Made by a program: the position numbers and the translations under genes
Notes under the pieces: model-generated
The model's database searches: none
Seen by the model: the letters and a program-made list of their open reading frames with translations, nothing else
Told to the model about the DNA's origin: nothing
Source of the DNA: a virus
Reading direction: 5' to 3' (one strand)
Length of the DNA stretch: 64,000 nt
IMG/VR virus record: IMGVR_UViG_3300045988_117450
Coordinates: 28,684-92,683 of that record
Part shown: in pieces, positions 6,101-64,000 of the stretch
Numbering within the stretch: position 1 is the stretch's first letter
How the letters are laid out: every line of letters starts with the position of its first letter

Positions 6101-6810
6101 GGGCTGCCGGCATAACCTCTATTCAAGAAGGAGATGAGATTTATGTAGAAGGAGATGAGGTTAATAATATCATGACTGATATGGAATCCAGATATGGGAT
6201 AGATACTATTGCCCATAATCATACAGTTAAAGCTATAAGGAGCCTCAATAACGTGTCGGGATATAAGGTGGAATACGGTTTAACCTTTATGACTTACAAT
6301 CCTTTTATTAGAATATCCAATCCAAAGCAAGAGTCTAAGGCTGTAAAAGATAAACCTTATATAGCCGAAGAAGTGTTTCCTCCGATATCAAGGGTAACAT
6401 CTCCTTATTTCTTGTATGGCGGTAACGAAGCATATACATCTGTTCCGGCTAAGGTAGAATCTATACCAGAGAAGATAATAGCTCGTAATGGCATTAAATT
6501 TGGCATGAGTGTAACTGAGCTAACCAAATTAGGATACAAAAAAGCTGGTGGAAACTGGATATACAAATTCTACATGAACTCAGGTTTGTATGATTTGTAC
6601 AACATCAACACCGGTGAGGCGTTCAGGGCTAAACCCGATCTTGGAGTTAAAATAAGTTCCAGTGAATTTATACGTTCCTTATTACAATCTGGAAGAGAAA
6701 TACAGAACATGATAAGAAACATGAGTCAGGAAGAGATAGACAGGAATAAGAATCTTGTAAAAAATTCTGATAATTCAGATTCTATAAATGAGTTAAATAA
6801 GGAGTGTTGA
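166..6810 (+). CDS. giant hypothetical protein (2214 aa); probable virion, tail or ejected protein, function unknown
   Basis: 6.6-kb ATG-initiated ORF. Gly-zipper/TM-like segment around residues 235-300, long coiled-coil stretches, acidic low-complexity region (EEDGDKKGDGKSEG). Carries in-frame GC-rich islands (2251-2335, 4300-4372, 5101-5200). No recognisable catalytic motif (no DxDGD). Confidence 0.6.
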   Translation: MATDSNVNRYNPAAKTTYEDVARQRKLAEEENYTPATLPETTTPLVPNYMPGEGVYAQPEFPDYASRIAAAEYEEPYIAKEISNSYSEALARNSYRGATPAPPPLNPYGPKVSIRESHQMGNDGVWRTKYPNYIPGINNEDYYARRQSGWSKFWNGVGKFALKSALYGAQGTISLPDKLINMASEGSYKAALNTNMDKFVGDLDQRIDMLLPHYYKKEVEDYNFGQKLFKDTGNFLWNDVLGNGMSFTVGAMISAYMTGGLGVGSLGNIGAKLGGRVGAKLAARQAANRGIGSLKSVFNDYVRKGVATGRNVGEAAKTMTLLATSAGFESSVEANSFMKQSESDFKDYYRKIYGRDPNAEEMAVFRNSNADVGSAIFAANMGIVGLSNWLLFGKYIGLGGKAIPGLEKKLNKHLFGLGTEVTKPGEMAIKITNPNIGQKIAGNVFNIMKRPVSEGLWEEGSQGAVQNTAEEYVKSRYDNVAMNGAVDVLDAISDGFKKQYTSKEGWTEIGIGAIIGSLFGMREGFFGVKEYSNSQILLERQVDEYNKASSNLNTAALNTLKKSMSLGPQVRSDVQSMTGKELDDAMFEKMSIDNQMGTLEDSAENFRQMVDMMPISEIAEANGMSLEEAKKYKDSIIDNYNNRLSDFRSAQSFAEDLIGDDSKIEFRKYVARNAFLGLQSESRMKDIASVIETLSGQPRVADALSTFSRLSDRARERAMAIRGIRSRIEELESEIEDLATRPRNVDGKDPQAESIQRKTKELEDLRTNYNNSLSELSTLIGKEFSIEELVSKTESVLSSPLSPISSQDVIEAYDTLVAFDDYFNVKSRQEKEFTAKDKAMRSLVNEYRRSLIDYRNMNNFLSKMLDKRFLAEENRGFLKALSSLWSTPYKEDDKVPDFAEPNKVGEYDTDEVVDQAMSEGKISEDEAWTIKAFMHALDKVREDRVKEAEDNIKESPLTESVSDEDYEAAMDNPIMVPVVRQSIIDKLYTGNADLLTAREKDVYDKHKQDFDDYVSSLGDSPINLIKSLSERADRLTSPRSVYEENKTVIDMAKSNLEPDQRQELDDAISSYVDIMNRRDKGEKVDEDKLADSVFTIEDLGQVGNITDLLPYIEQNRIIDKGRISESTLSNFGEDDVNIDSLVNELDESDNTPGANIDSAQNPETLMVRIISNDGNERYEIAGLRADKFVSSIKSLVPIQISSETNANGTKRYSLNIGGETANIMELPYHARWSIDKESARVLNRYTDVSIQDVGNSYSLVYKRLDSDELVPYRTGVGFGENEVDKIDQEALSSLKKGDKVNLEIDVNDTYNQSLFTEYDNAVQSGDRNKIESAENKLVSNMVIKVMSGNRFVSVVKADTGGIDGISKIRRTAFNKWKKDAGRSATINVGTHVVAQTLPGRPVFNMRVNGQGYGQVENLPITEKGAEKVSDVGYVLNGKVVLKNGSKYTGFPFAYSILNDKKNNYKNVRVPVVVIKGKNGLNYLFPVSLRSVESEEGKKWISFIDMLLESGDSELLQMGQDDIQDLNAYLTKLGLDPASYQVSYLNPISGLRKAREAIEKLSMVPDVVKWVEDESRSVKDIVTSEVESGIDFEGEMFVAPKIRIQFGKSSSGPKSLIEDDLPFSDEGKTVTSKEDVDIYEEEMPEEDPVRGTRPAPPAQPAPAAQAAQSLPGKKRTSRKNFSLMLNEIESHIEKEGLPPYANIFDFIARKIVGGDLRFLRERGNPKSLKEEMGLEPKGTVGDKISTPSKKGGKTLEEYVSWLRSQTDQVVADYVGPRSDEQIISELKNFLKYINFVPSKALNYSLRVNGMDTLKEYGTKEEVEKMESDINSLVSEVLSTVDNQTVEDVSTAIESNNLPAIWGPVESLDMTNEEKIEFLNNVADFLSGIPEYDAVVESIESESDNILNDGKEGSAEGGAVRTEEDGDKKGDGKSEGQPRDDGKAEGDVYLPGSEEGRVDNYRKNGDKFSDIAEVTLWLLRRAAGITSIQEGDEIYVEGDEVNNIMTDMESRYGIDTIAHNHTVKAIRSLNNVSGYKVEYGLTFMTYNPFIRISNPKQESKAVKDKPYIAEEVFPPISRVTSPYFLYGGNEAYTSVPAKVESIPEKIIARNGIKFGMSVTELTKLGYKKAGGNWIYKFYMNSGLYDLYNINTGEAFRAKPDLGVKISSSEFIRSLLQSGREIQNMIRNMSQEEIDRNKNLVKNSDNSDSINELNKEC

Positions 6811-6812
6811 GT

Positions 6813-7322
6813 ATGAGAAGGAGATACGAAGATACTTCAAGTCTTGTTTCTTACCAGTTGAAGACCAATCAGCAGGGGGATATAGAGGTTTATGTTGATG
6901 ACAGATTTGTTGGAAACGTAAGTGAAGGAGTTTGCAACTGGAGGGATATTGAATACAAGAGCAAGGTTACTATATCTTTGAAGGGAGTAGAGAATAAGGC
7001 TAAAACTTCAAATAAAAGAGTTGGTCCTTATTGTCATATTAATAGCATATTTGGAGGAAATGAATCTTATCATGAAGGTCCAGATAGTAATATTAAAAAG
7101 AGTCCGGTTACTACCTTTATAATGTATTGCTATGACATACTCCCATCGCTAAAGCAAACGGGATTCTTGGATACAAACGCAAGAAACCCCGATATTACTA
7201 TCGTTGGAATTACTCTTACTTTCCAATTCGGAAATGCCCTTCCGAAGTATATTACGGGCTGCAAGAATATCACGGTCGTTGATGGCGCCGCACGACGGGC
7301 ACACCCACGTGCGGTCGCGTAA
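6813..7322 (+). CDS. hypothetical protein whose 3' end is disrupted or replaced by an IS insertion (native portion about 6813-7132)
   Basis: ORF track gives a GTG start at 6804; ATG at 6813 with AAGGAG 9 nt upstream is the likely start. From 7133 the frame runs into antisense of the tnpB 3' end / IS right end. Confidence 0.45.
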   Translation: MRRRYEDTSSLVSYQLKTNQQGDIEVYVDDRFVGNVSEGVCNWRDIEYKSKVTISLKGVENKAKTSNKRVGPYCHINSIFGGNESYHEGPDSNIKKSPVTTFIMYCYDILPSLKQTGFLDTNARNPDITIVGITLTFQFGNALPKYITGCKNITVVDGAARRAHPRAVA

Positions 7323-8370
7323 CGACAGACCTTTATTAATGCAGCCGCATTCACAAGTTTTGGAAGAAGGATACCATTTATCAATCTTATGTACTATCAC
7401 TCCATACTTTGAAGCAACATACGTAAGTTTGTCAATAAAAGAAGAGTGACTAAGATCGGAAACTTTCTTTCCCCACAAACGTTTCATTCCTTCAATGTTT
7501 AGATCTTCAATGAAAATATAATCATATTGTTTGCATAACTGATGTGCTAACTTCCATTGAAAATCTGATCGAAGATCGTTTATTTTACGATACGTTTGTT
7601 GTAGTTCAAACAGTCTCCTTCTTCTATTGTTGGAGTCCTTCTTTGCATTAGAAAGCCGTTTGTTTAGTTTTCTAATCTTGTTTTGATATTGTTTGAAGAA
7701 TAATGGAGACCCAATTTTGCTACCATCACTTTTAGTTAGATAAGTTTTCAGTCCAAAATCCAATCCGATAGATGCACCATCATGTGTCTTTCTATAAGAG
7801 TTTGTAGGATTATGATCTGTAACTATAATCAAACTAAAACGGGAACAGGTTTCTCTAACTATTCTAATTTGTTTAACATTACCTTCGTAGACTCTACTAT
7901 ATGAGAATCTAAATCGTTTCTTTCCTTTGTTAATTGTTAAACAATTCCCATTCAGGGTAAACCCTCCTTGTTTAAAAACAAAAGAGTTAAAACAAGAAGC
8001 TCCCTTAAACTTAGGTGGTCTCTTTGATTTTCTTTTAAAGAAACGGTTATAAGATTCATCAAGACGTTCAAGTATTTCTTGTGTTGTTTGAGAATGAAGA
8101 AGATTTCTTTTAATTCTTTTGGTAAAATGTTTCTTCATTTTACCAACTGAGATATATTTTCCAAACAGTTTGTAATACCTACGTTGTAGGGCTAAAGCAT
8201 GATTCCACACAAAACAACATTCGCGAAGTATCTTGTCAAGATACTTCGTTTTCTTTGAATGATAAATGTTGTATTTGTATGAAATCATTTTTTTTATCTG
8301 TAATTTTGATTCAAAATTAATCAAACCAATTCATCCACTTACTAAAGCATGGTGGTTTTGTTGGTTAAAT
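7133..8370 (-). mobile_element. IS200/IS605-family tnpB-only element, copy 1 (full length, about 1238 bp)
   Basis: Ends defined by comparison with the second copy at 33611-34176: identity starts at ATTTAACCAACAAAACCACCAT (left end, revcomp of 8349-8370) and stops at GGGAGTATGTCA (right end, 7133-7144). Both copies have TTATGAT adjacent to the left end. No tnpA. Confidence 0.75.
7149..8324 (-). CDS. tnpB: TnpB / IS605 OrfB-family RuvC-like RNA-guided endonuclease (likely true start ATG 8288, 379 aa)
   Basis: RuvC-I GLDFGLKTYLTKSDG, RuvC-II IFIEDLNIEGMKR, zinc finger CECGCIN...CPSCGAIN, RuvC-III DRDILAARNI. TAatTTTG -7 box inside the left end at 8312-8319 (minus strand). Confidence 0.85.
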   Translation of the reverse strand: MINFESKLQIKKMISYKYNIYHSKKTKYLDKILRECCFVWNHALALQRRYYKLFGKYISVGKMKKHFTKRIKRNLLHSQTTQEILERLDESYNRFFKRKSKRPPKFKGASCFNSFVFKQGGFTLNGNCLTINKGKKRFRFSYSRVYEGNVKQIRIVRETCSRFSLIIVTDHNPTNSYRKTHDGASIGLDFGLKTYLTKSDGSKIGSPLFFKQYQNKIRKLNKRLSNAKKDSNNRRRRLFELQQTYRKINDLRSDFQWKLAHQLCKQYDYIFIEDLNIEGMKRLWGKKVSDLSHSSFIDKLTYVASKYGVIVHKIDKWYPSSKTCECGCINKGLSLRDRTWVCPSCGAINDRDILAARNILRKGISELESKSNSNDSNIGVSCVCIQESRLL

Positions 8371-8398
8371 TATCATAATTTCTATTTTTATAATATCT

Positions 8399-14595: not shown

Positions 14596-14662
14596 AATTT
14601 ATATTGTTTTATTTTAAATCTAATTAACTCATGAATGTCGTGTATAATCATAGAATTGTAAC

Positions 14663-14670
14663 TATATTTG
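14663..14670 (+). promoter_or_regulatory. -7 box TAtaTTTG (Bacteroidetes-type promoter) for the downstream tnpB
   Basis: Exact TAnnTTTG match 18 nt upstream of ATG 14689. Confidence 0.4.
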
Positions 14671-14688
14671 CCTTTAAATAATTAAACG

Positions 14689-15831
14689 ATGCATAAAGCT
14701 TTCAAATACAGAATATATCCTAATAAGTCTCAGAAGGTGTTGCTTTCTAAGACTTTTGGATGTATCCGTGTAATTTGGAATGCTAATGTCGAATCTTTCA
14801 ATTCTTATGATAAGGATAGTAATCCTAAACCTAAAATCATTATTAAATCTGATTTAATAATCGACAAGCCGTGGTTGAATGAAATCTCTGCCGCTGCTAT
14901 ACAACAAAAGATAAGGGATTTTCAAGAAATTACCAATCAGTTTTTCTCTAAAACAAGAAAGAAGAAAATAGGCAGACCTTCTTTTAAAAAGAAATCTGGA
15001 AACCAATCTTATAGATTACCTAATCAAAAATTCTCATTAAAAGACAATAAGATAAGATTAGAGAAAATAGGATGGGTTAAGATATCTATTGATAGGAATA
15101 TACCTGATAATTCAAAGATGTTGTCATATACGATATCAATGAATTGCTGTGGTCAATATTTCGTTTCTATTCTTGTTGATGTTGTTATACCGAATAAGGG
15201 AAAGACTGGTAAATCAGTCGGAATAGATTTAGGATTGAAATCTTTTGCTACATTGTCTGATGGAGTTGTGATTGATAATATCAAGTTTTTCAGAGAGAAA
15301 CAATCTGAAATAGCTAAAATACAAAGACATTTAAGTAGAAAGAATAAAGGAAGTAACAGACATAGAAAGAATAAAATAAAAATAGCAAGATTGTATAACA
15401 AGATTGCTAATAAGAGAAACAACTTTCTTCATAATGTTACCACTTCGCTTGTAAATAATTATGATGTTATTTGTATAGAAGATTTAAATGTTTCTGGAAT
15501 GTTATCGAATCACAAATTAGCTAAAGCTATATCCGATACAAGTTTCTCAATGTTTAGAAGCATGTTGGAATACAAATGTAATTGGTATGGAAAAGAACTT
15601 GTCGTAATAGACAGGTTTTATCCATCATCAAAAACATGTTCCAAATGCGGATGGAAGAAAGAAGACTTAACTTTATCAGATAGGGTTTTCAAGTGTGAAA
15701 ATTGCGGCATTGAAATAGATAGGGATTTGAATGCTGCAATAAATATACAGAGGGTAGGAGTTGATATCCTCTATAATCGGATGCAGAGGGATGAGGTTAC
15801 GAATCTCAATGAAGCGTCTATAATGGAGTAG
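14689..15831 (+). CDS. tnpB: TnpB / IS605 OrfB-family RuvC-like endonuclease, second distinct family (380 aa)
   Basis: RuvC-I GIDLGLKSFATLSDG, RuvC-II ICIEDLNVSGM, zinc finger CSKCGWKKE...CENCGIEI, RuvC-III DRDLNAAINI. No tnpA nearby; element ends not delimitable from a single copy. Confidence 0.85.
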   Translation: MHKAFKYRIYPNKSQKVLLSKTFGCIRVIWNANVESFNSYDKDSNPKPKIIIKSDLIIDKPWLNEISAAAIQQKIRDFQEITNQFFSKTRKKKIGRPSFKKKSGNQSYRLPNQKFSLKDNKIRLEKIGWVKISIDRNIPDNSKMLSYTISMNCCGQYFVSILVDVVIPNKGKTGKSVGIDLGLKSFATLSDGVVIDNIKFFREKQSEIAKIQRHLSRKNKGSNRHRKNKIKIARLYNKIANKRNNFLHNVTTSLVNNYDVICIEDLNVSGMLSNHKLAKAISDTSFSMFRSMLEYKCNWYGKELVVIDRFYPSSKTCSKCGWKKEDLTLSDRVFKCENCGIEIDRDLNAAINIQRVGVDILYNRMQRDEVTNLNEASIME

Positions 15832-15864
15832 TAATTATTATGTTTTACTATAAAATTTCCAACT

Positions 15865-16307: not shown

Positions 16308-16507
16308 AAATGCTACTTTTAAACGTACCTTCCTTCTCTGGTAAGATAGTTTCTACTACCTGGATTAAAGCTGTAAGGGATTTCCAATCCAGATCGAAGG
16401 CAGAAAGAGACTTGTATTGTTCGGTTTGTGGATGTACAGGAGGGTGTAACTTGTGCGATGATGTAAGTAAATATAGGATTTCAGAACAACTAAAATATTA
16501 TAGATAA
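16304..16507 (+). CDS. hypothetical Cys-rich small protein (67 aa)
   Basis: Start overlaps the upstream stop; CSVCGCTGGCNLC motif. Confidence 0.45.
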   Translation: MKMLLLNVPSFSGKIVSTTWIKAVRDFQSRSKAERDLYCSVCGCTGGCNLCDDVSKYRISEQLKYYR

Positions 16508-16508
16508 T

Positions 16509-17138
16509 ATGGTTAGAATCGCATATTTCGGAACCGATGGCTGCCCTGGTCATCACGTTATTCCAATACGAGGTAAATTCACGGAAGAGGATGTTAAGGT
16601 AATAGAATCTATAGATTGTGATGATTTCTATAAGGTGTTTGACGTTATGCGTTTTAAGATAGCTGAGTTTAAGGGATGGACGATATTGGGAATCCCTGCA
16701 AGCTTAGACGATCATAGACCTGGAAGCAAAACTGTTATCTTCATAGAAGGCAAAGCCAACGAATCTAATTTTGTGGAAGTCATACAAGAGTTTCCTTTTC
16801 TTGAAAAGAAAGTAAAGAAGCTTATTAAGCTATATTATGATAAAGAGTGGTTTGTAACGGGCAAAATAAATCAAGATCTGTCTAATAAGGAGCAGTTTCA
16901 ATTTACGTTAGATAAGGATGATGTTATTAACATGATTAGGGGAGTCGATTTAGATCCTTATTCTGATGTGGCGAATGAAATGGAGAAAATCGGATTGGGA
17001 AAATCATTTGATTCTTCATATGATGGCCCCACATGGTCTTGGTTTGTTAACAAAGTAGATATTTGGCAGAATGATGCATGGGATGGTTTTTCTGCTGAGT
17101 TCTTATGGGATTTGTATTGTAGGATAAAGAAAGTATAG
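16509..17138 (+). CDS. hypothetical protein (209 aa)
   Basis: ORF in a tightly packed co-directional cluster. Confidence 0.5.
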   Translation: MVRIAYFGTDGCPGHHVIPIRGKFTEEDVKVIESIDCDDFYKVFDVMRFKIAEFKGWTILGIPASLDDHRPGSKTVIFIEGKANESNFVEVIQEFPFLEKKVKKLIKLYYDKEWFVTGKINQDLSNKEQFQFTLDKDDVINMIRGVDLDPYSDVANEMEKIGLGKSFDSSYDGPTWSWFVNKVDIWQNDAWDGFSAEFLWDLYCRIKKV

Positions 17139-28462: not shown

Positions 28463-28696
28463 TTATTTAATTTTTACGATCTTAATGGAATCTCCTATAT
28501 TGTATTCCCCTTGGTGCCCAACGAATTTTATTAACCTATTACTGTGAGCTATTGAAACTCTTTCGTCTTCACCATAATACATTATACATCCACCACGTAA
28601 AGGTTTTAAATCGTATATAACCCATCCGTCATTAACTTGATTATCATATTTGCATGATGATAATACAAGTGTCATCAATAAAACAAAATATTTCAT
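28463..28696 (-). CDS. small lipoprotein (77 aa)
   Basis: Signal peptide with lipobox MKYFVLLMTLVLSS-C. Confidence 0.5.
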   Translation of the reverse strand: MKYFVLLMTLVLSSCKYDNQVNDGWVIYDLKPLRGGCIMYYGEDERVSIAHSNRLIKFVGHQGEYNIGDSIKIVKIK

Positions 28697-31838: not shown

Positions 31839-31947
31839 TTATATGATGCAAAATAATATCAAAAATAATTAATTCTATTTCATAATCCAAATGAAATATG
31901 TATCTTAGATACATGGTTTGTAAATAGCATTTAATGTATTAAAAATC

Positions 31948-33180
31948 ATGAGATTAGTATATAAGTTTAACATAGGACAAAATGAAAATATATCATCTTT
32001 GTGCAAGATTAGCAACAACTTGTACAACCAAGCATTGTATATTTTCAGAGAAACACTTTCTAAAGAAGATAAGTGGTTATCCTATTTTGAACTTGATGCT
32101 ATCATGAAGAATACCAAGAACTTAGATGGAGACATTAATTACAGATTACTAAAGGCGCAATGTTCTCAACAAGTTCTTCGTATTCTTGATAAAAACATTA
32201 AAGGTTACTACAAATCGGTCCAAGATTACAAGAAAAATTATAATAAGTATAGGGAAAAACCTGGTCTTCCAAATTACAAAAAGAGAGGTTATGAGTTCAA
32301 TTTGTATTACACGAGTCAGAGTTGCAAAATAAAAGATGGGAAAATAATCCTATCAAAAGATATTTCAATACCCATTCCTCAATATGAGAAGTATTCTGAT
32401 TTGATAAAAGATTTCAAACAGATTAGAATAAAACCATTAGCATGTGGATATAAAATAGAAATCATTTATGAGGTAAAAGATGCTGAAGTATCTAAAGGTA
32501 GAGAAGAGAAGATTGCTTCCATTGATTTAGGAATAGACAATCTTGCAACTCTTATCAGTGAAGATTTTACTGTTCTATTTAGTGGCAAATTTGTTAAATC
32601 ATACAATCAATTGTTTAACAAAGCACTTGCTAAATTAAATAGCATAAAGGATTTACAAAAGATAAAAGGAACAACAAAACGAATAAAGAAATTATATTAT
32701 GATAGAGAACAGTACATAGAAGATGTCTTTCATAAAATCAGTAGAAAGATAGTTAATTTACTTATCGATTCCAAGATAACAAAATTAATTGTAGGCTACA
32801 ACAAGGGATGGAAAACTGGAGTAAACATGGGTAAAAGGAATAACCAGAAGTTTACACAAATCCCTTTTGCGAGATTGGTGAGTTACTTAGAATATAAATG
32901 TGAATTAGCTGGTATTGAAATAGTTATTCATGAAGAGTCATATACTTCAAAATGTGATTCATTAGCATTTGAGAAGATAGGAAAACATGAAAACTATTTA
33001 GGAAAAAGGAAGAACCGAGGATTGTTTCAATCCTCGGTAGGAAAACTCATAAATGCAGACGTAAATGGAGCATTAAACATTATGAGAAAAGTAGTCGGTG
33101 ATTCCTGTGAATCAATTCGTAGGATAATCGATAGAGGGTTATTGTTTAACCCGGTAAGGATTACGAATGTATTTTGCTAA
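31948..33180 (+). CDS. tnpB: TnpB-like / IS605 OrfB-family protein, third distinct family (410 aa)
   Basis: RuvC-I SIDLGIDNLATLISED; ...HEESYTSKCDSL...C; C-terminal ADVNGALNIMRK (RuvC-III). IS891/IS1136/IS1341-like architecture. Upstream perfect palindrome ATGTATC-TTA-GATACAT (31884-31900). No tnpA. Confidence 0.7.
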   Translation: MRLVYKFNIGQNENISSLCKISNNLYNQALYIFRETLSKEDKWLSYFELDAIMKNTKNLDGDINYRLLKAQCSQQVLRILDKNIKGYYKSVQDYKKNYNKYREKPGLPNYKKRGYEFNLYYTSQSCKIKDGKIILSKDISIPIPQYEKYSDLIKDFKQIRIKPLACGYKIEIIYEVKDAEVSKGREEKIASIDLGIDNLATLISEDFTVLFSGKFVKSYNQLFNKALAKLNSIKDLQKIKGTTKRIKKLYYDREQYIEDVFHKISRKIVNLLIDSKITKLIVGYNKGWKTGVNMGKRNNQKFTQIPFARLVSYLEYKCELAGIEIVIHEESYTSKCDSLAFEKIGKHENYLGKRKNRGLFQSSVGKLINADVNGALNIMRKVVGDSCESIRRIIDRGLLFNPVRITNVFC

Positions 33181-33238
33181 TAAGTACATTTTGAAACTTA
33201 TAAAGAAATGTAATAAGTTTTATTGAATTTAATATTTT

Positions 33239-33598
33239 TCATAACATTATTCCTTCCAAATTTACTTTAATAGAACCATTTATGGTTTTAATGCTCCCAT
33301 CTATGGTTGAAATCACATCATCTAAATCATTTATAATACTTTCCATGTCATCAACCACCTCCTCCATATCAGTTACAGCCTGATCTGATTCCCAATATCT
33401 TTCTGAGTCTTGTAACGATTCCGGTATATTATCTCTCGCCTCCGTCTCTTCATCTAAAATCATATCAATATCATCTTTGGCTGAATTTATGTTGTGCTTT
33501 AACTCCGATAACTTTGATTTGATGTATTCAAAATCTGTTTTATACTTATTTGCGTTTTTGATAACATCTGATATTTTTTTTCTTCTCTTGTTGTTCAT
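33239..33598 (-). CDS. hypothetical acidic coiled-coil protein (119 aa)
   Basis: ATG at 33596-33598 lies only 12 nt from the left end of IS copy 2, so the native upstream region was displaced by the insertion. Confidence 0.45.
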   Translation of the reverse strand: MNNKRRKKISDVIKNANKYKTDFEYIKSKLSELKHNINSAKDDIDMILDEETEARDNIPESLQDSERYWESDQAVTDMEEVVDDMESIINDLDDVISTIDGSIKTINGSIKVNLEGIML

Positions 33599-33610
33599 GC
33601 TTTTATGATT

Positions 33611-34176
33611 ATTTAACCAACAAAACCACCATACTTTAGTAGGTAGATGAATTGGTTTGATTAATTTTGAATCAAAATTACAGATAAAAAGGAGACTGTT
33701 TGAACTCCAACAAGCGTATCGTAAAATAAACGATCTTCGATCGGATTTTCAATGGGGATTAGCTCATCAGTTATGCAAACAGTATGATTATATTTTTATT
33801 GAAGATCTAAACATTGAAGGAATGAAACGTTTGTGGGGAAAGAAAGTTTCTGACCTCAGTCATTCTTCTTTTATTAACAAACTTACGTATGTTGCTTCAA
33901 AGTATGGAGTAACGATACACAAGATTGACAAATGGTATCCTTCTTCCAAAACTTGCGAATGCGGCTGCATTAATAAAGGACTGTCGTTACGCGACCGCAC
34001 GTGGGTATGCCCGGCGTGCGGTGCCATTAACGACCGTGATGTTCTTGCAGCCCGTAATATACTTCGGAAGGGCATTTCCGAATTGGAGAGCAAGAGTAAT
34101 TCCAGCGATAGTAATATCGGGGTTTCTTGCGCTTGTATCCAAGAATCCCATTTGCTTTAGCTATGGGAGTATGTCA
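33611..34176 (+). mobile_element. internally deleted (566 bp) derivative of the 7133-8370 IS200/IS605-type element, inverted relative to copy 1
   Basis: Left end ATTTAACCAACAAAACCACCAT... and right end ...GGGAGTATGTCA shared with copy 1. About 672 bp deleted between the first 11 codons and the RRRLFELQQ region; a few percent SNP divergence. TTATGAT directly upstream of the left end, as in copy 1. Confidence 0.75.
33657..34160 (+). pseudogene. tnpB: tnpB remnant (lacks RuvC-I and the REC/WED region; retains RuvC-II, zinc finger, RuvC-III and the 3' omega-RNA-encoding region)
   Basis: 167-aa ORF MINFESKLQIK|RRLFELQQAYRK...IFIEDLNIEGMKR...CECGCIN...CPACGAIN...DRDVLAARNI, collinear with the C-terminal 155 aa of the protein at 7149..8324. 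Confidence 0.7.
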
Positions 34177-36538
34177 ACCTATTATAATATTCGATAATCT
34201 TTTCTTTCCTATCTCCCGGTTTTACTGCCATATTCTCAGCCAAGAACCTAAAATACGACACCGGTATGTCTTTGAATCTAATTCCTTCATATTTTCCAAA
34301 CCACATTATTATGCTGTCAAGATCGTCCTCTCTCCTACCATCTCCATTTACGGATTTAAGCGAGGCTGCCCGGCGAAGGATCTCGTCTTTGGTAATAATA
34401 TCACCCATCCTTATATTGGACAGAAGTTGATCTCCGGCAAACATACACCAGCCTTTAGAAGGGAATTGTTCGATTGTCAAGTCTTCTATCCGACCGAAAC
34501 GCCTCATGTTGTCGCAGCAATCAACTATCAGTGCCTCTTTCTTGTCAGGATGGATGCGAACTGCACGGCCTACAATCTGGTAAAATACTGAATATGAGAA
34601 TGTTGGACGCCCAAACATCACACAGTCAAGTTCAGGAAAGTCAAATCCGGTAGCAAGCGTTGAATAATTAAAAACCACCTTCAACTTTCCTTCTTTGAAA
34701 TCGGATATAATTTGCTCTCTTTTCTTTTTGGTTGTTAGCGATGTTACGACACCGGTTATGGCTCCCATCCTGGCATTCATGAACTCTGATATTCTATTAC
34801 ATGATTCGATAGAATCCATACAGACCAAAATGGCTTTACGTTCGTTCATAAGTTGAAGAAGGCGCTTGTAGATAGAGTTGTTTAAGCCATTTCGTACAAT
34901 ACTTTCTTTAATAGATTCGTTGGTGTATTCAGCCCCGGTGCTGTTTAACATCAGAGCCGATTCATCAAACGACCATCGTTCGTACTTAAGTGGACACCAA
35001 AACCCTTGAGAAGTTAGTTCTTGTATCTGAGTCACATGAACTATTTTCTTGAAGAAGTTATGTTCGTCTTTCGTCAGCATATTGAGCTTGCTATAGTTTC
35101 CTTCCAGCATGGAACTGTAGGTTCGGAGGCGGCAGGGAGTGGCGGTGAATCCCAGCACCTTCGCCTCGGGAAACTCGCTCATAAACTCCATAAACTCAGA
35201 ACCTTCTTCAGGAGAATATCCTGAATGACAATTTCCAGAAACAAATGTATATCCTTTATATCTTAGTACTATACATCCAGATGGAACCTCTACGCAATAA
35301 ACTTGTCCGGTGTATTTTTCATATCGTTTATACATAGAGTTAGTGCCTCTTAGTTTTTTGTCTTTTGTTATAAAAAGCCTATAAACATCCGAATATGTTT
35401 CTTTTCTGCCATCCTTTTCAATAGAAACATAACATCCGTGGCCAGCTATTGTGGCTACAGAATTATAAAAATCCACCTGCGTTTTATCGGTCGATGAATA
35501 ATAAAGCATCGTATTCCCTATAATACTGCCGTCCCATAAAGAACACTCTTCTATTACCGATCTTGCTTTTTCGTAAGACATTGGGAATGATATATGATTT
35601 CGAATATCCTTTGTTGTAAACTTTGGCATTCTTACCATAAACCTTCTTCTGTTTTTCGTATTTCCTTCTTTTTCTATTTTTCCTTTAACTTCCCATATCT
35701 CAACGTTTGCATTCTTACATAAATAATGAATCCTTTTTATTTTTCTTTCTTTTGAAAATGAGAAAGATATAATTGTGTCATTTTCGTTTTTGTTATGAAT
35801 ACTTCCATCTGCTTGTGTTGCTATAAACAACCTCTCCATGTCAGATAAGGAATCGCCTTCGCTATCTACACGTGATATCCCTGATACCGGAATGCATTTC
35901 CCAGATTTAAAAGAAGCTTCAGATATTTTCTGTTTATACCATTTACCGTATTTCTTATCATAAAACAAGAAATCATGATTCTTTGTCACTGGAAGATCTA
36001 TTCCATGTTTAATATGAAGTAAACAAATGTCACCATCGTGCGGCTTGTTGATATATCTGATAGGCATCACAAAATCAATAAATCCTTTATCATATTGAGC
36101 TACCCTTACATTTTGTTCTAATTTATTAAATTGAACAAACCCTTTTTCGGTTAATATCTCCACATCTCCAGTAAAACATTCATCTATCAAGATCGTATCT
36201 ATCCCTATATCCTTCAACCTCGCTACATCTTTTTTTATGCTCTTTAATGTTGCATAAGTCATAGCCGACAGTTCCTTTATACCACATGAAGCAGAATATA
36301 TGGTAGGTTTAGAATCGAATGATACGGCCTTTGCATAATTCTGCTCCAGAATCTCTTTTGAGGGCTGTAATACTAATGTTGGTCTATTTATTTCATGTGC
36401 TATCTTGGATATCAGAAGGCTCTTTCCACATCCACATGGAGCTACGATTATGCCAGGCTTTTTAGATCTTCCTGTAAGAAACTTAAGCCCGGCATCTACC
36501 GCCTCTTTTTGGTAAGGTCTAAGTTCAAAGCCCATCAC
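34157..36538 (-). CDS. superfamily-2 DExH (DECH)-box helicase interrupted by a 316-aa intein. Precursor 793 aa, GTG start; mature ~477 aa.
   Basis: Motif I APCGCGKS, Ia LVLQP, II ILIDE|C...|CHSGY (DECH after splicing), III LGFTATP, VI QIVGRAVR. The last ~6 codons and the stop lie inside the IS copy 2 right end (34160-34176). Confidence 0.8.
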   Translation of the reverse strand: MMGFELRPYQKEAVDAGLKFLTGRSKKPGIIVAPCGCGKSLLISKIAHEINRPTLVLQPSKEILEQNYAKAVSFDSKPTIYSASCGIKELSAMTYATLKSIKKDVARLKDIGIDTILIDECFTGDVEILTEKGFVQFNKLEQNVRVAQYDKGFIDFVMPIRYINKPHDGDICLLHIKHGIDLPVTKNHDFLFYDKKYGKWYKQKISEASFKSGKCIPVSGISRVDSEGDSLSDMERLFIATQADGSIHNKNENDTIISFSFSKERKIKRIHYLCKNANVEIWEVKGKIEKEGNTKNRRRFMVRMPKFTTKDIRNHISFPMSYEKARSVIEECSLWDGSIIGNTMLYYSSTDKTQVDFYNSVATIAGHGCYVSIEKDGRKETYSDVYRLFITKDKKLRGTNSMYKRYEKYTGQVYCVEVPSGCIVLRYKGYTFVSGNCHSGYSPEEGSEFMEFMSEFPEAKVLGFTATPCRLRTYSSMLEGNYSKLNMLTKDEHNFFKKIVHVTQIQELTSQGFWCPLKYERWSFDESALMLNSTGAEYTNESIKESIVRNGLNNSIYKRLLQLMNERKAILVCMDSIESCNRISEFMNARMGAITGVVTSLTTKKKREQIISDFKEGKLKVVFNYSTLATGFDFPELDCVMFGRPTFSYSVFYQIVGRAVRIHPDKKEALIVDCCDNMRRFGRIEDLTIEQFPSKGWCMFAGDQLLSNIRMGDIITKDEILRRAASLKSVNGDGRREDDLDSIIMWFGKYEGIRFKDIPVSYFRFLAENMAVKPGDRKEKIIEYYNRLTYSHS
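35231..36178 (-). other. intein with a LAGLIDADG homing-endonuclease domain, inserted at helicase motif II
   Basis: N-terminal block A CFTGDVEIL (Cys1 = residue 121), block B VTKNHDFL (T.NH), LAGLIDADG-like LFIATQADGSI, C-terminal ...TFVSGN followed by +1 Cys (CHSGY); 948 bp in frame. Confidence 0.7.
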
Positions 36539-63850: not shown

Positions 63851-64000
63851 CATTTCACTTACTACTAACCCATAGAATGCTGTTTTAAACTACCAATCTA
63901 TTGAATTTTGTGGGAAAACCTACAGAATACTGTTTTAAAACTCTGATCTATTGAATTTTGTGGGAAAACCTACAGAATACTGTTTTAAAACTCTGATCTA
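63851..64000. repeat. 50-bp tandem direct repeat array (two perfect units 63901-63950 and 63951-64000, plus a degenerate upstream unit 63851-63900); the array runs off the window end
   Basis: Unit TTGAATTTTGTGGGAAAACCTACAGAATACTGTTTTAAAACTCTGATCTA repeated exactly; the preceding 50 nt match it partially (CCCATAGAATGCTGTTTTAAACTACCAATCTA). Confidence 0.8.

Follow-up and report, generated by a model that had tools for sequence, protein, structure and literature searches.

A probable recently truncated tnpB-only IS200/IS605-family element that keeps its predicted guide-RNA region in a gut phage genome

The window analysed here is a 64,000-nt stretch of viral DNA (IMG/VR record IMGVR_UViG_3300045988_117450, positions 28,684 to 92,683). 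It carries, in opposite orientations, two copies of a tnpB-only insertion sequence (IS) of the IS200/IS605 family: a resident full-length element with an intact tnpB gene and, 25 kb away, a short copy that has lost an internal segment (Table 1). On one side of the short copy are the final three codons of a helicase gene, and on the other a gene for a 119-aa protein begins; the insertion swaps the last three helicase codons, IKA*, for the element-read LTYSHS*. We consider it likely that this short copy is a recently truncated, non-autonomous member of the family with IS608-like ends, and the evidence for this comes from its structure, from comparison with the family at large, from the vacant alleles of its insertion site and from its lack of private substitutions.

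Table 1. Features of the short copy and of the resident full-length element, with positions in the window
Feature	Position	Strand	Remarks
Short element: probable internally deleted, non-autonomous tnpB-only IS200/IS605-family derivative, 571 bp	33607..34177	+	insertion relative to csAssE-Sib (L001 3372/3375) and to at least 119 vacant IMG/VR sites
TTAT transposon-adjacent motif (TAM; TnpA left cleavage site)	33603..33606	+	directly 5' of the short element
Left end: 19-nt spacer, subterminal hairpin, tnpB 5' untranslated region (UTR)	33607..33690	+	95% identity to resident left end
Left-end hairpin	~33626-33646	+	loop GCTTTAG-like, as in right end; DNA fold
Deletion junction	33690..33691	+	672 bp gone, element positions ~85-756 (ATG start and codons 1-222)
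tnpB remnant, codons 224-379 and stop	33691..34160	+	Pfam Cas12f1-like_TNB 1.5e-20, partial OrfB_IS605
Predicted omega-RNA scaffold, ~141 nt	34037..34177	+	overlaps last ~41 tnpB codons and right end
Right-end hairpin	34146-34168	+	inside omega-RNA scaffold
TCAA cleavage site	34174-34177	+	right end of short element
Predicted 16-nt guide CCTATTATAATATTCG	34178..34193	+	directly 3' of TCAA; helicase gene 3' end, opposite strand
Resident full-length element, 1243 bp	7132..8374	-	TTAT at 8378-8375; intact tnpB
Resident tnpB coding sequence	8288->7149	-	379 aa; D177/E261/D340
Resident omega-RNA scaffold	7272->7132	-	
Resident predicted guide AGCAATACATTATAAA	7131->7116	-	

A repeat search of the window returned one short copy and two pairs of inverted arms, 7133-7623 against 33686-34176 (491 nt, 93% identity) and 8291-8378 against 33603-33690 (88 nt, 95%). 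An ungapped comparison of the long arm counted 35 scattered mismatches in 492 nt, the longest exact run being 53 nt. Two arm pairs with one 672-bp gap between them bear out the original prediction, made from the letters of the window, that the short copy descends from the same element family by internal deletion. The only junction joins ACAGATAAAAA to GGAGACTG (the 24-mer across it is ACAGATAAAAAGGAGACTGTTTGA), and there the short copy lacks exactly 672 bp of the full copy. The A-run microhomology that had been proposed for the deletion shrinks to about 2 nt (AA) inside an imperfect A/G-rich match. Similarly, the element had been recognized in the right place, but its ends had been set at 33611 and 34176, whereas end mapping across the whole family gives 33607-34177, and 8374 to 7132 for the resident copy.

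The resident TnpB has Pfam matches to HTH_OrfB_IS605, OrfB_IS605 and Cas12f1-like_TNB and aligns over residues 11-352 to the TnpB of ISDra2 (8BF8/8EXA; E 8e-29), with D177, E261 and D340 as its triad. Because HTH_OrfB_IS605 covers residues 3-43 counted from ATG 8288, and because in family copies with another left end the similarity begins no more than about 8 nt before that codon, we take ATG 8288 to be the real start; it follows that the start codon and codons 1-222 were removed by the deletion. The first 11 codons that the short copy was originally said to keep came from a mechanical TTG start (8324) and are 5' UTR. What is left amounts to 156 in-frame tnpB codons, within a frame that is open for 167 codons from a TTG or for 112 from an internal ATG. 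Residues mapped through ISDra2 TnpB (8BF8) place RuvC-II E261, the zinc-ribbon/TNB domain and RuvC-III D340 in the remnant, from which the native start codon and RuvC-I D177 are gone. Without D177 the remnant cannot act as a nuclease, as had been predicted.

The family was collected from IMG/VR with a 29-nt pattern from the 3' end and a 23-nt pattern from the 5' end, each of which matched at least 117-118 stretches; the counts of flanks and of defective copies given here and below are among the matches listed, which lie nearly all in human-gut phage contigs of 80-155 kb. BLAST of the element against the loci found at least 122 full-length copies of 1243 bp, at 88-94% identity, and the family is abundant in a clade of human-gut phages of about 150 kb. 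TTAT ends all 32 distinct left flanks, and TCAA precedes 55 of the 61 distinct right flanks, with TCAT or TCAC before the remainder (the resident copy itself has TCAT). The distinct 3' flanks, at least 61 in number, are mutually unrelated. The two ends are asymmetric, with similar subterminal imperfect hairpins and no terminal inverted repeats: the left hairpin, CCACCATRC-TTTA-GTARGTRG, stands 19 nt from TTAT, and the right one, CCCATTTGC-TTTA-GCKATGGG, which shows compensatory changes, stands 10 nt before the end of TCAA. Such spacing is the geometry of IS608, and the short copy has both hairpins, TTAT and TCAA at the same distances.

The TnpB frame is intact in 69 of 80 distinct full copies, with a ratio of nonsynonymous to synonymous divergence (pN/pS) of about 0.11 against the window copy, and the D-E-D triad is found in all 68 of the 379-aa copies checked; the TnpB of this family is under purifying selection. 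Copies of 1243 bp (about 120 seen) leave no room for tnpA, and the 61 different insertion sites imply that an active TnpA exists somewhere. A GTDB search with the TnpB protein identified no TnpA source. Its only homologue, at 56% amino acid identity, lies in a metagenome-assembled genome of Candidatus Cryptobacteroides (L186, JBGVNX010000030.1), which may be a weak hint at a Bacteroidales host. Judged from these sequences, the family appears to be an active tnpB-only IS200/IS605-family element. Like IS608, ISDra2 and the tnpB-only IS1341-type elements, it inserts 3' of a 4-nt motif without target duplication, the motif being TTAT here and TTAC in IS608. Further features in common are the TCAA right end, the hairpin distances, a TnpB that aligns to that of ISDra2 with the triad conserved, and an omega RNA that overlaps the 3' end of tnpB; it differs in having no tnpA in the copies seen, a scaffold that belongs to no Rfam family, and phage genomes as its hosts.

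About a fifth of the family copies (for example L028, L013, L044, L062 and L080) match the window element only from position ~79-84 on, and, their left end being different, one and the same tnpB, guide RNA and right end is combined with two types of left end. A full-length relative at 75% identity (L003; MT839900.1, 821-1982) was seen in an unrelated human-faecal phage scaffold.

The predicted guide RNA was modelled on the last 150 nt of 30 diverse family members (alignment A2), for which RNAalifold returned a multi-helix fold that we then completed by hand to 44 pairs. In the 44-pair model 97.5% of cells are paired, as against 36-50% when the partners are slid; compensatory double changes are seen in 10 pairs (for example GCAAGA/TCTTGC to GTATGG/CCATAC, and CGAT/ATCG to TGCA/TGCA), and none of 500 shuffles reached the observed score. 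The fold spans element positions ~1103-1243, with a closing helix that pairs its 5' end with the bases just before the guide. Conservation over element positions 1101-1220 is 0.95-0.985, a range partly inflated by how the copies were found. A search of Rfam at gathering and at relaxed thresholds gave no family for the scaffold and chance matches only.

The short copy keeps 43 of the 44 consensus pairs, the exception being a T-T mismatch at columns 126/135, and its scaffold differs from the resident one at 9 of 150 positions, of which only the T-T mismatch breaks pairing. The original prediction that the whole guide-RNA region was retained, along with RuvC-II, the zinc ribbon and RuvC-III, is thereby upheld. 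The minimum free energy (MFE) fold of the short copy as a single sequence matches the consensus in the outer helix, the 8-bp hairpin, helix 3 and the right-end hairpin, with somewhat different inner helices; its stability is marginal over shuffled controls (z-score -1.96, with 10 of 200 shuffles at least as stable).

The insertion site of the short copy (site 2) can be read in its vacant form. The closest deposited genome, csAssE-Sib (OR575929.1, 151 kb, human gut), on which a literature search found no paper, is without both copies. Its site 2 reads CATGCCTTTAT, ending in CCTTTAT, followed directly by CTTATTATAATATTCG; in the window the 571-bp element stands exactly after this TTAT, with no target-site duplication. 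At least 119 further related IMG/VR stretches match a pattern that spans the vacant site; in these and in csAssE-Sib the site reads TTTAT followed by C(T/C)TATTAT, again with nothing duplicated. In 71 of the 119 sibling stretches (60%, among the matches listed) TTAT at the vacant site is followed by a perfect match to the predicted guide CCTATTATAATATTCG, and the remaining vacant alleles listed have TC (36) or CT (12) at guide positions 1-2. In the tail of the helicase these alleles amount to a conservative polymorphism between Arg and Lys codons. The window contains no other TTAT-flanked near-match to this guide. Both guides have a mismatch to csAssE-Sib at position 2, which we considered as an escape allele; the idea was rejected for site 2, where the window allele, CC, is the commonest among the alleles listed.

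The original prediction derived the short copy from the same element as the resident one, and here the comparison points elsewhere. In its 3' part the short copy matches full copies from other phages (L104, L004, L005) at 97% identity and the resident at 93%, which indicates that it was acquired independently; at its left end it shows 100% identity to L143 and L163. By sequence, then, its ancestor evidently belonged to a different sub-lineage from that of the resident full copy. When the short copy was set against 100 distinct family sequences, no private base was found in it; the sole rare base is a synonymous change common to three other copies. The lack of private substitutions argues that the deletion is recent. 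It also bears on the 19 synonymous and 11 nonsynonymous codon differences between the remnant and the resident tnpB (pN 0.024, pS 0.19): since the remnant has no changes of its own, the low ratio was inherited from intact ancestors, and selection on the truncated protein, which we entertained as a candidate, is rejected.

The survival of the guide module is explained most simply by chance, a random deletion having happened to fall elsewhere in the element. Elsewhere in the family we found other internal deletions (L057, L013, L076), copies truncated at the 5' side (L048, L075, L091, L110, L031, L131) and copies truncated at the 3' side (L132/L148, L134, L129), and every defective copy has its own endpoints. 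Three of them (L013, L076, L110) lie at sites where other phages carry full copies and so appear to have decayed in place. Defective copies make up 5 of 108 by the 3' pattern and 6 of 88 by the 5' pattern (about 5-7%). A catalogue anchored on the 3' end had suggested that the guide end is preferentially kept, a suggestion that was rejected by a count anchored on both ends, in which four relics are without the 5' part and four (three of them independent) without the 3' part.

These relics lend some weight to the strongest alternative, in which the short copy is an inert relic, functionless even for the family: a decaying pseudo-element, untranscribed, unused by any TnpB and due to be lost. It is a singleton, and it would take its place among defective copies whose endpoints vary, whose guide end is not favoured and several of which are products of decay in place. 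A relic of this kind sits less well with the total lack of private substitutions, with an intact left-end 5' UTR, scaffold and pair of ends, and with the presence 25 kb away of a compatible intact TnpB, by which a transcribed scaffold would presumably be bound by default. We regard this alternative as a serious one whose chances fall somewhat short of even.

The remnant would make no nuclease and would be mobile only with a Y1 TnpA transposase in trans. In the retained tnpB 5' UTR, TAATTTTG (33662-33669) is a possible -7 box of the Bacteroidota type. If the remnant is transcribed from the retained left-end promoter region, its omega RNA could be loaded by the resident intact TnpB (7149-8288, - strand), which would then cut TTAT-CCTATTATAATATTCG, the vacant-site sequence of most sibling phages. 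Repair of the cut by recombination would put the remnant back where it had been excised, or would introduce a copy into co-infecting genomes free of the element. This scheme would be the published homing by TnpB acting in trans, as proposed for palindrome-associated transposable elements (PATEs). Use of a second guide by the resident TnpB is plausible, since the two copies have the same TAM, TTAT, and closely similar scaffolds in which all but one of the pairs are kept, and since the resident frame is intact with its D-E-D triad. The trans-guide idea is not new: the concept of protein-less elements with omega RNAs that TnpB uses in trans is stated by Meers et al. 2023 (PMC10055086), where it is already published for PATEs. 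The scheme also resembles phage homing endonuclease genes and inteins, in that a selfish element of a phage would have the element-free allele of a co-infecting relative cut and would be copied in by repair; unlike in those systems, recognition would be RNA-guided and would come from a separate element, and no spread was found.

Several results weigh against the trans-guide scheme. Among the family relics, loss of the 3' end is as frequent as loss of the 5' end, and there is no sign of selection for the guide module. Patterns for the occupied site 2 had no match in IMG/VR or in JGI metagenomes; with no other sampled phage occupied there, a homing drive, if any, has not spread. A regular-expression search of the window, which is a crude one, found no ORF (open reading frame) with the HUH motif of TnpA. 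A sigma-70 promoter scan, uninformative for a probable Bacteroidota host, established no promoter, its matches being not above shuffled expectation. Finally, the T-T mismatch falls in the right-end hairpin, yet it is common to many full-length copies. Carried further, the scheme would make the remnant an extra guide cassette for the resident TnpB, so that one nuclease with two or more guides could cut element-free siblings during co-infection. A perfect target in 60% of the siblings listed, a compatible scaffold and an undecayed remnant are all compatible with this. We hold the extra-cassette proposal to be unlikely. If it were true, siblings would be cut in the helicase gene, at its 3' end, and in a gene of the structural region. 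Between phages this would be an RNA-guided equivalent of the marker exclusion that homing endonucleases bring about; it would also represent a natural step on the way from transposon nucleases with one guide to arrays with many.

Another alternative takes the short copy to be a true miniature inverted-repeat transposable element (MITE) or PATE, the 571-bp form having itself transposed into site 2 with TnpA supplied in trans. Its ends, hairpins, TTAT and TCAA are intact, the 19-nt/10-nt spacing is IS608-like, and a full-length copy was never seen at site 2 in IMG/VR or JGI metagenomes. Against this stand a single copy in the window, different junctions in all other short derivatives of the family, and a junction 24-mer with no match in IMG/VR viral contigs or JGI metagenome contigs, where an exact match was needed and diverged copies would escape. 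MITEs and PATEs are the same short form at several sites and have no coding capacity; this one occupies a single site and holds its 156 in-frame codons in a 167-codon open frame. We consider mobility of the short form rather improbable. With a unique junction, and with either end lost about equally often among the family relics, neither the original label of 'MITE-like' nor the suggestion that retention of the guide region is evidence of selection is supported: the short copy is a singleton, its site is occupied in no other sampled phage, and the description that suits it best is that of a newly formed deletion derivative outside any amplified family of miniature elements. It does share with PATEs (PMC10055086) left and right ends with subterminal hairpins, the lack of a functional protein, and an omega-RNA scaffold and guide that would need the TnpB of another element in trans. 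It differs from them in being the product of a fresh deletion that keeps part of tnpB, not a minimal palindromic element; in being a single copy with a unique junction and no sign of amplification; and in residing in a virulent-type gut phage genome, not a bacterial chromosome.

The two copies had also been proposed as a substrate for inversion: recombination between them, as inverted repeats, would turn around the intervening 25 kb (8375-33606) and give rise to genome isomers. The inverted arms are 491 nt long with exact runs of up to 53 nt, and there is precedent in cyanophages, in which inverted repeats of about 500 bp flanking invertible segments of about 30 kb are documented (bioRxiv 10.64898/2026.02.14.705889). 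Here, however, the arms are only 93% identical and come from different sub-lineages, gene order is collinear with csAssE-Sib inside the segment and on both sides of it, the genes around the short copy are unchanged in those ENA contigs that contain it, and a 95.6-kb contig spans both copies in the arrangement of the window, by coordinate arithmetic. We found no evidence of inversion and judge it very unlikely.

Still less probable, to the point of being hardly credible, is that the truncated frame is expressed in a new role, for instance as a TnpB-derived regulator or a dominant-negative binder of omega RNA. The frame is open to the native stop, and its divergence from the resident is mostly synonymous; but that synonymous signal is inherited, all variants save one rare synonymous change being shared with intact copies, the native start is lost, the WED/REC parts that bind omega RNA are deleted, and the form is a singleton. 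Among known systems, TldRs offer a comparison. They are genes that are conserved and passed on vertically; their losses concern RuvC residues in the C-terminal part, while the N-terminal regions that bind RNA and DNA remain. TldRs are nuclease-dead, TnpB-derived, RNA-guided transcription factors (PMC10705468), and the remnant is like them a TnpB derivative unable to cut DNA, beside a retained guide RNA; unlike them, it has no N-terminal two thirds and no start codon, and the truncated form is not conserved.

An assembly artefact or mis-joined duplicate can be counted as already refuted, in agreement with the original prediction, by the 35 scattered differences between the copies, by exact transposon ends at a TTAT site that is vacant elsewhere, and by sequence identical to the short copy over 2.8-5.6 kb (100%) in contigs of at least three separate ENA assemblies (ERZ653091, ERZ653001, ERZ653689). 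The neighbouring gene is present in seven ENA contigs in all. A contig of 95,629 bp in ERZ653091 runs through both copies, and by coordinate arithmetic the window is its last 64 kb.

Taken alone, the truncated copy matters little, since IS200/IS605 elements that have undergone deletion but kept a guide RNA are known from the literature, as is the reliance on TnpB in trans that is presumed for them. Its context is more useful: a tnpB-only family with a fixed TTAT and at least 61 insertion sites in human-gut phages of about 150 kb, with intact ORFs, purifying selection and a well-supported guide-RNA fold; a phage in which 64 kb contain not only the remnant but also three intact TnpB elements and an intein-like insert; and hundreds of natural pairs of vacant and occupied alleles. 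The spread of the family, its intact ORFs and these allele pairs make it a convenient system in which to test TnpB homing between co-infecting phages and the role of guide-only remnants.

Some further observations concern the resident copy and the surroundings of the short one. Beside the right end of the resident copy (7116-7132; 6804-7322, + strand), the window lacks 252 bp of flank found in csAssE-Sib and also in two stretches (L015, L026) that carry the element at the same TTAT as the resident copy. The new flank starts exactly after a second TTAT (in L026, TTTTTAT followed by AGCAATACATTA), so that the resident guide has been re-set to a different TTAT-flanked target. The loss truncates a gene of about 192 aa, the ORF of which now enters the element antisense; recombination between two tandem copies or a TnpA-mediated event is a possible cause.

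A third TnpB gene, unrelated to the studied family, lies about 370 bp to the left of the short copy (ORF 31948-33180, + strand, 410 aa, OrfB_IS605 and Cas12f1-like_TNB, 21% identity to the resident), within an insertion of 1.39 kb (31845-33235) relative to csAssE-Sib. With this insertion on the left and the short copy on the right, the 119-aa gene (33239-33598) is bracketed by two IS elements. Another intact TnpB (ORF 14689-15831, + strand, 380 aa, HTH, OrfB_IS605 and TNB; phmmer E 8e-43 to the resident) belongs to a 1.22-kb insertion relative to csAssE-Sib (14642-15863) that has no DNA similarity to the studied family. One kilobase from the short copy, the helicase ORF (34157-36538) contains an in-frame insert of 945 bp (315 aa; 35231-36175, - strand) that is absent from csAssE-Sib. 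It splits the DECH motif (LIDE/C...GN/CHSG), beginning with Cys and ending with Asn, which is then followed by Cys, and it has Pfam matches to Intein_splicing and LAGLIDADG_3 below threshold; from these features it is very probably an intein with a homing endonuclease. A further insertion relative to csAssE-Sib, of 802 bp (16328-17129), carries an ORF of 209 aa (16509-17138, + strand) with no significant Pfam match. Two tandem direct repeats of 50 nt, 84% identical, lie at 63867-63966, close to where both the window and the contig end.

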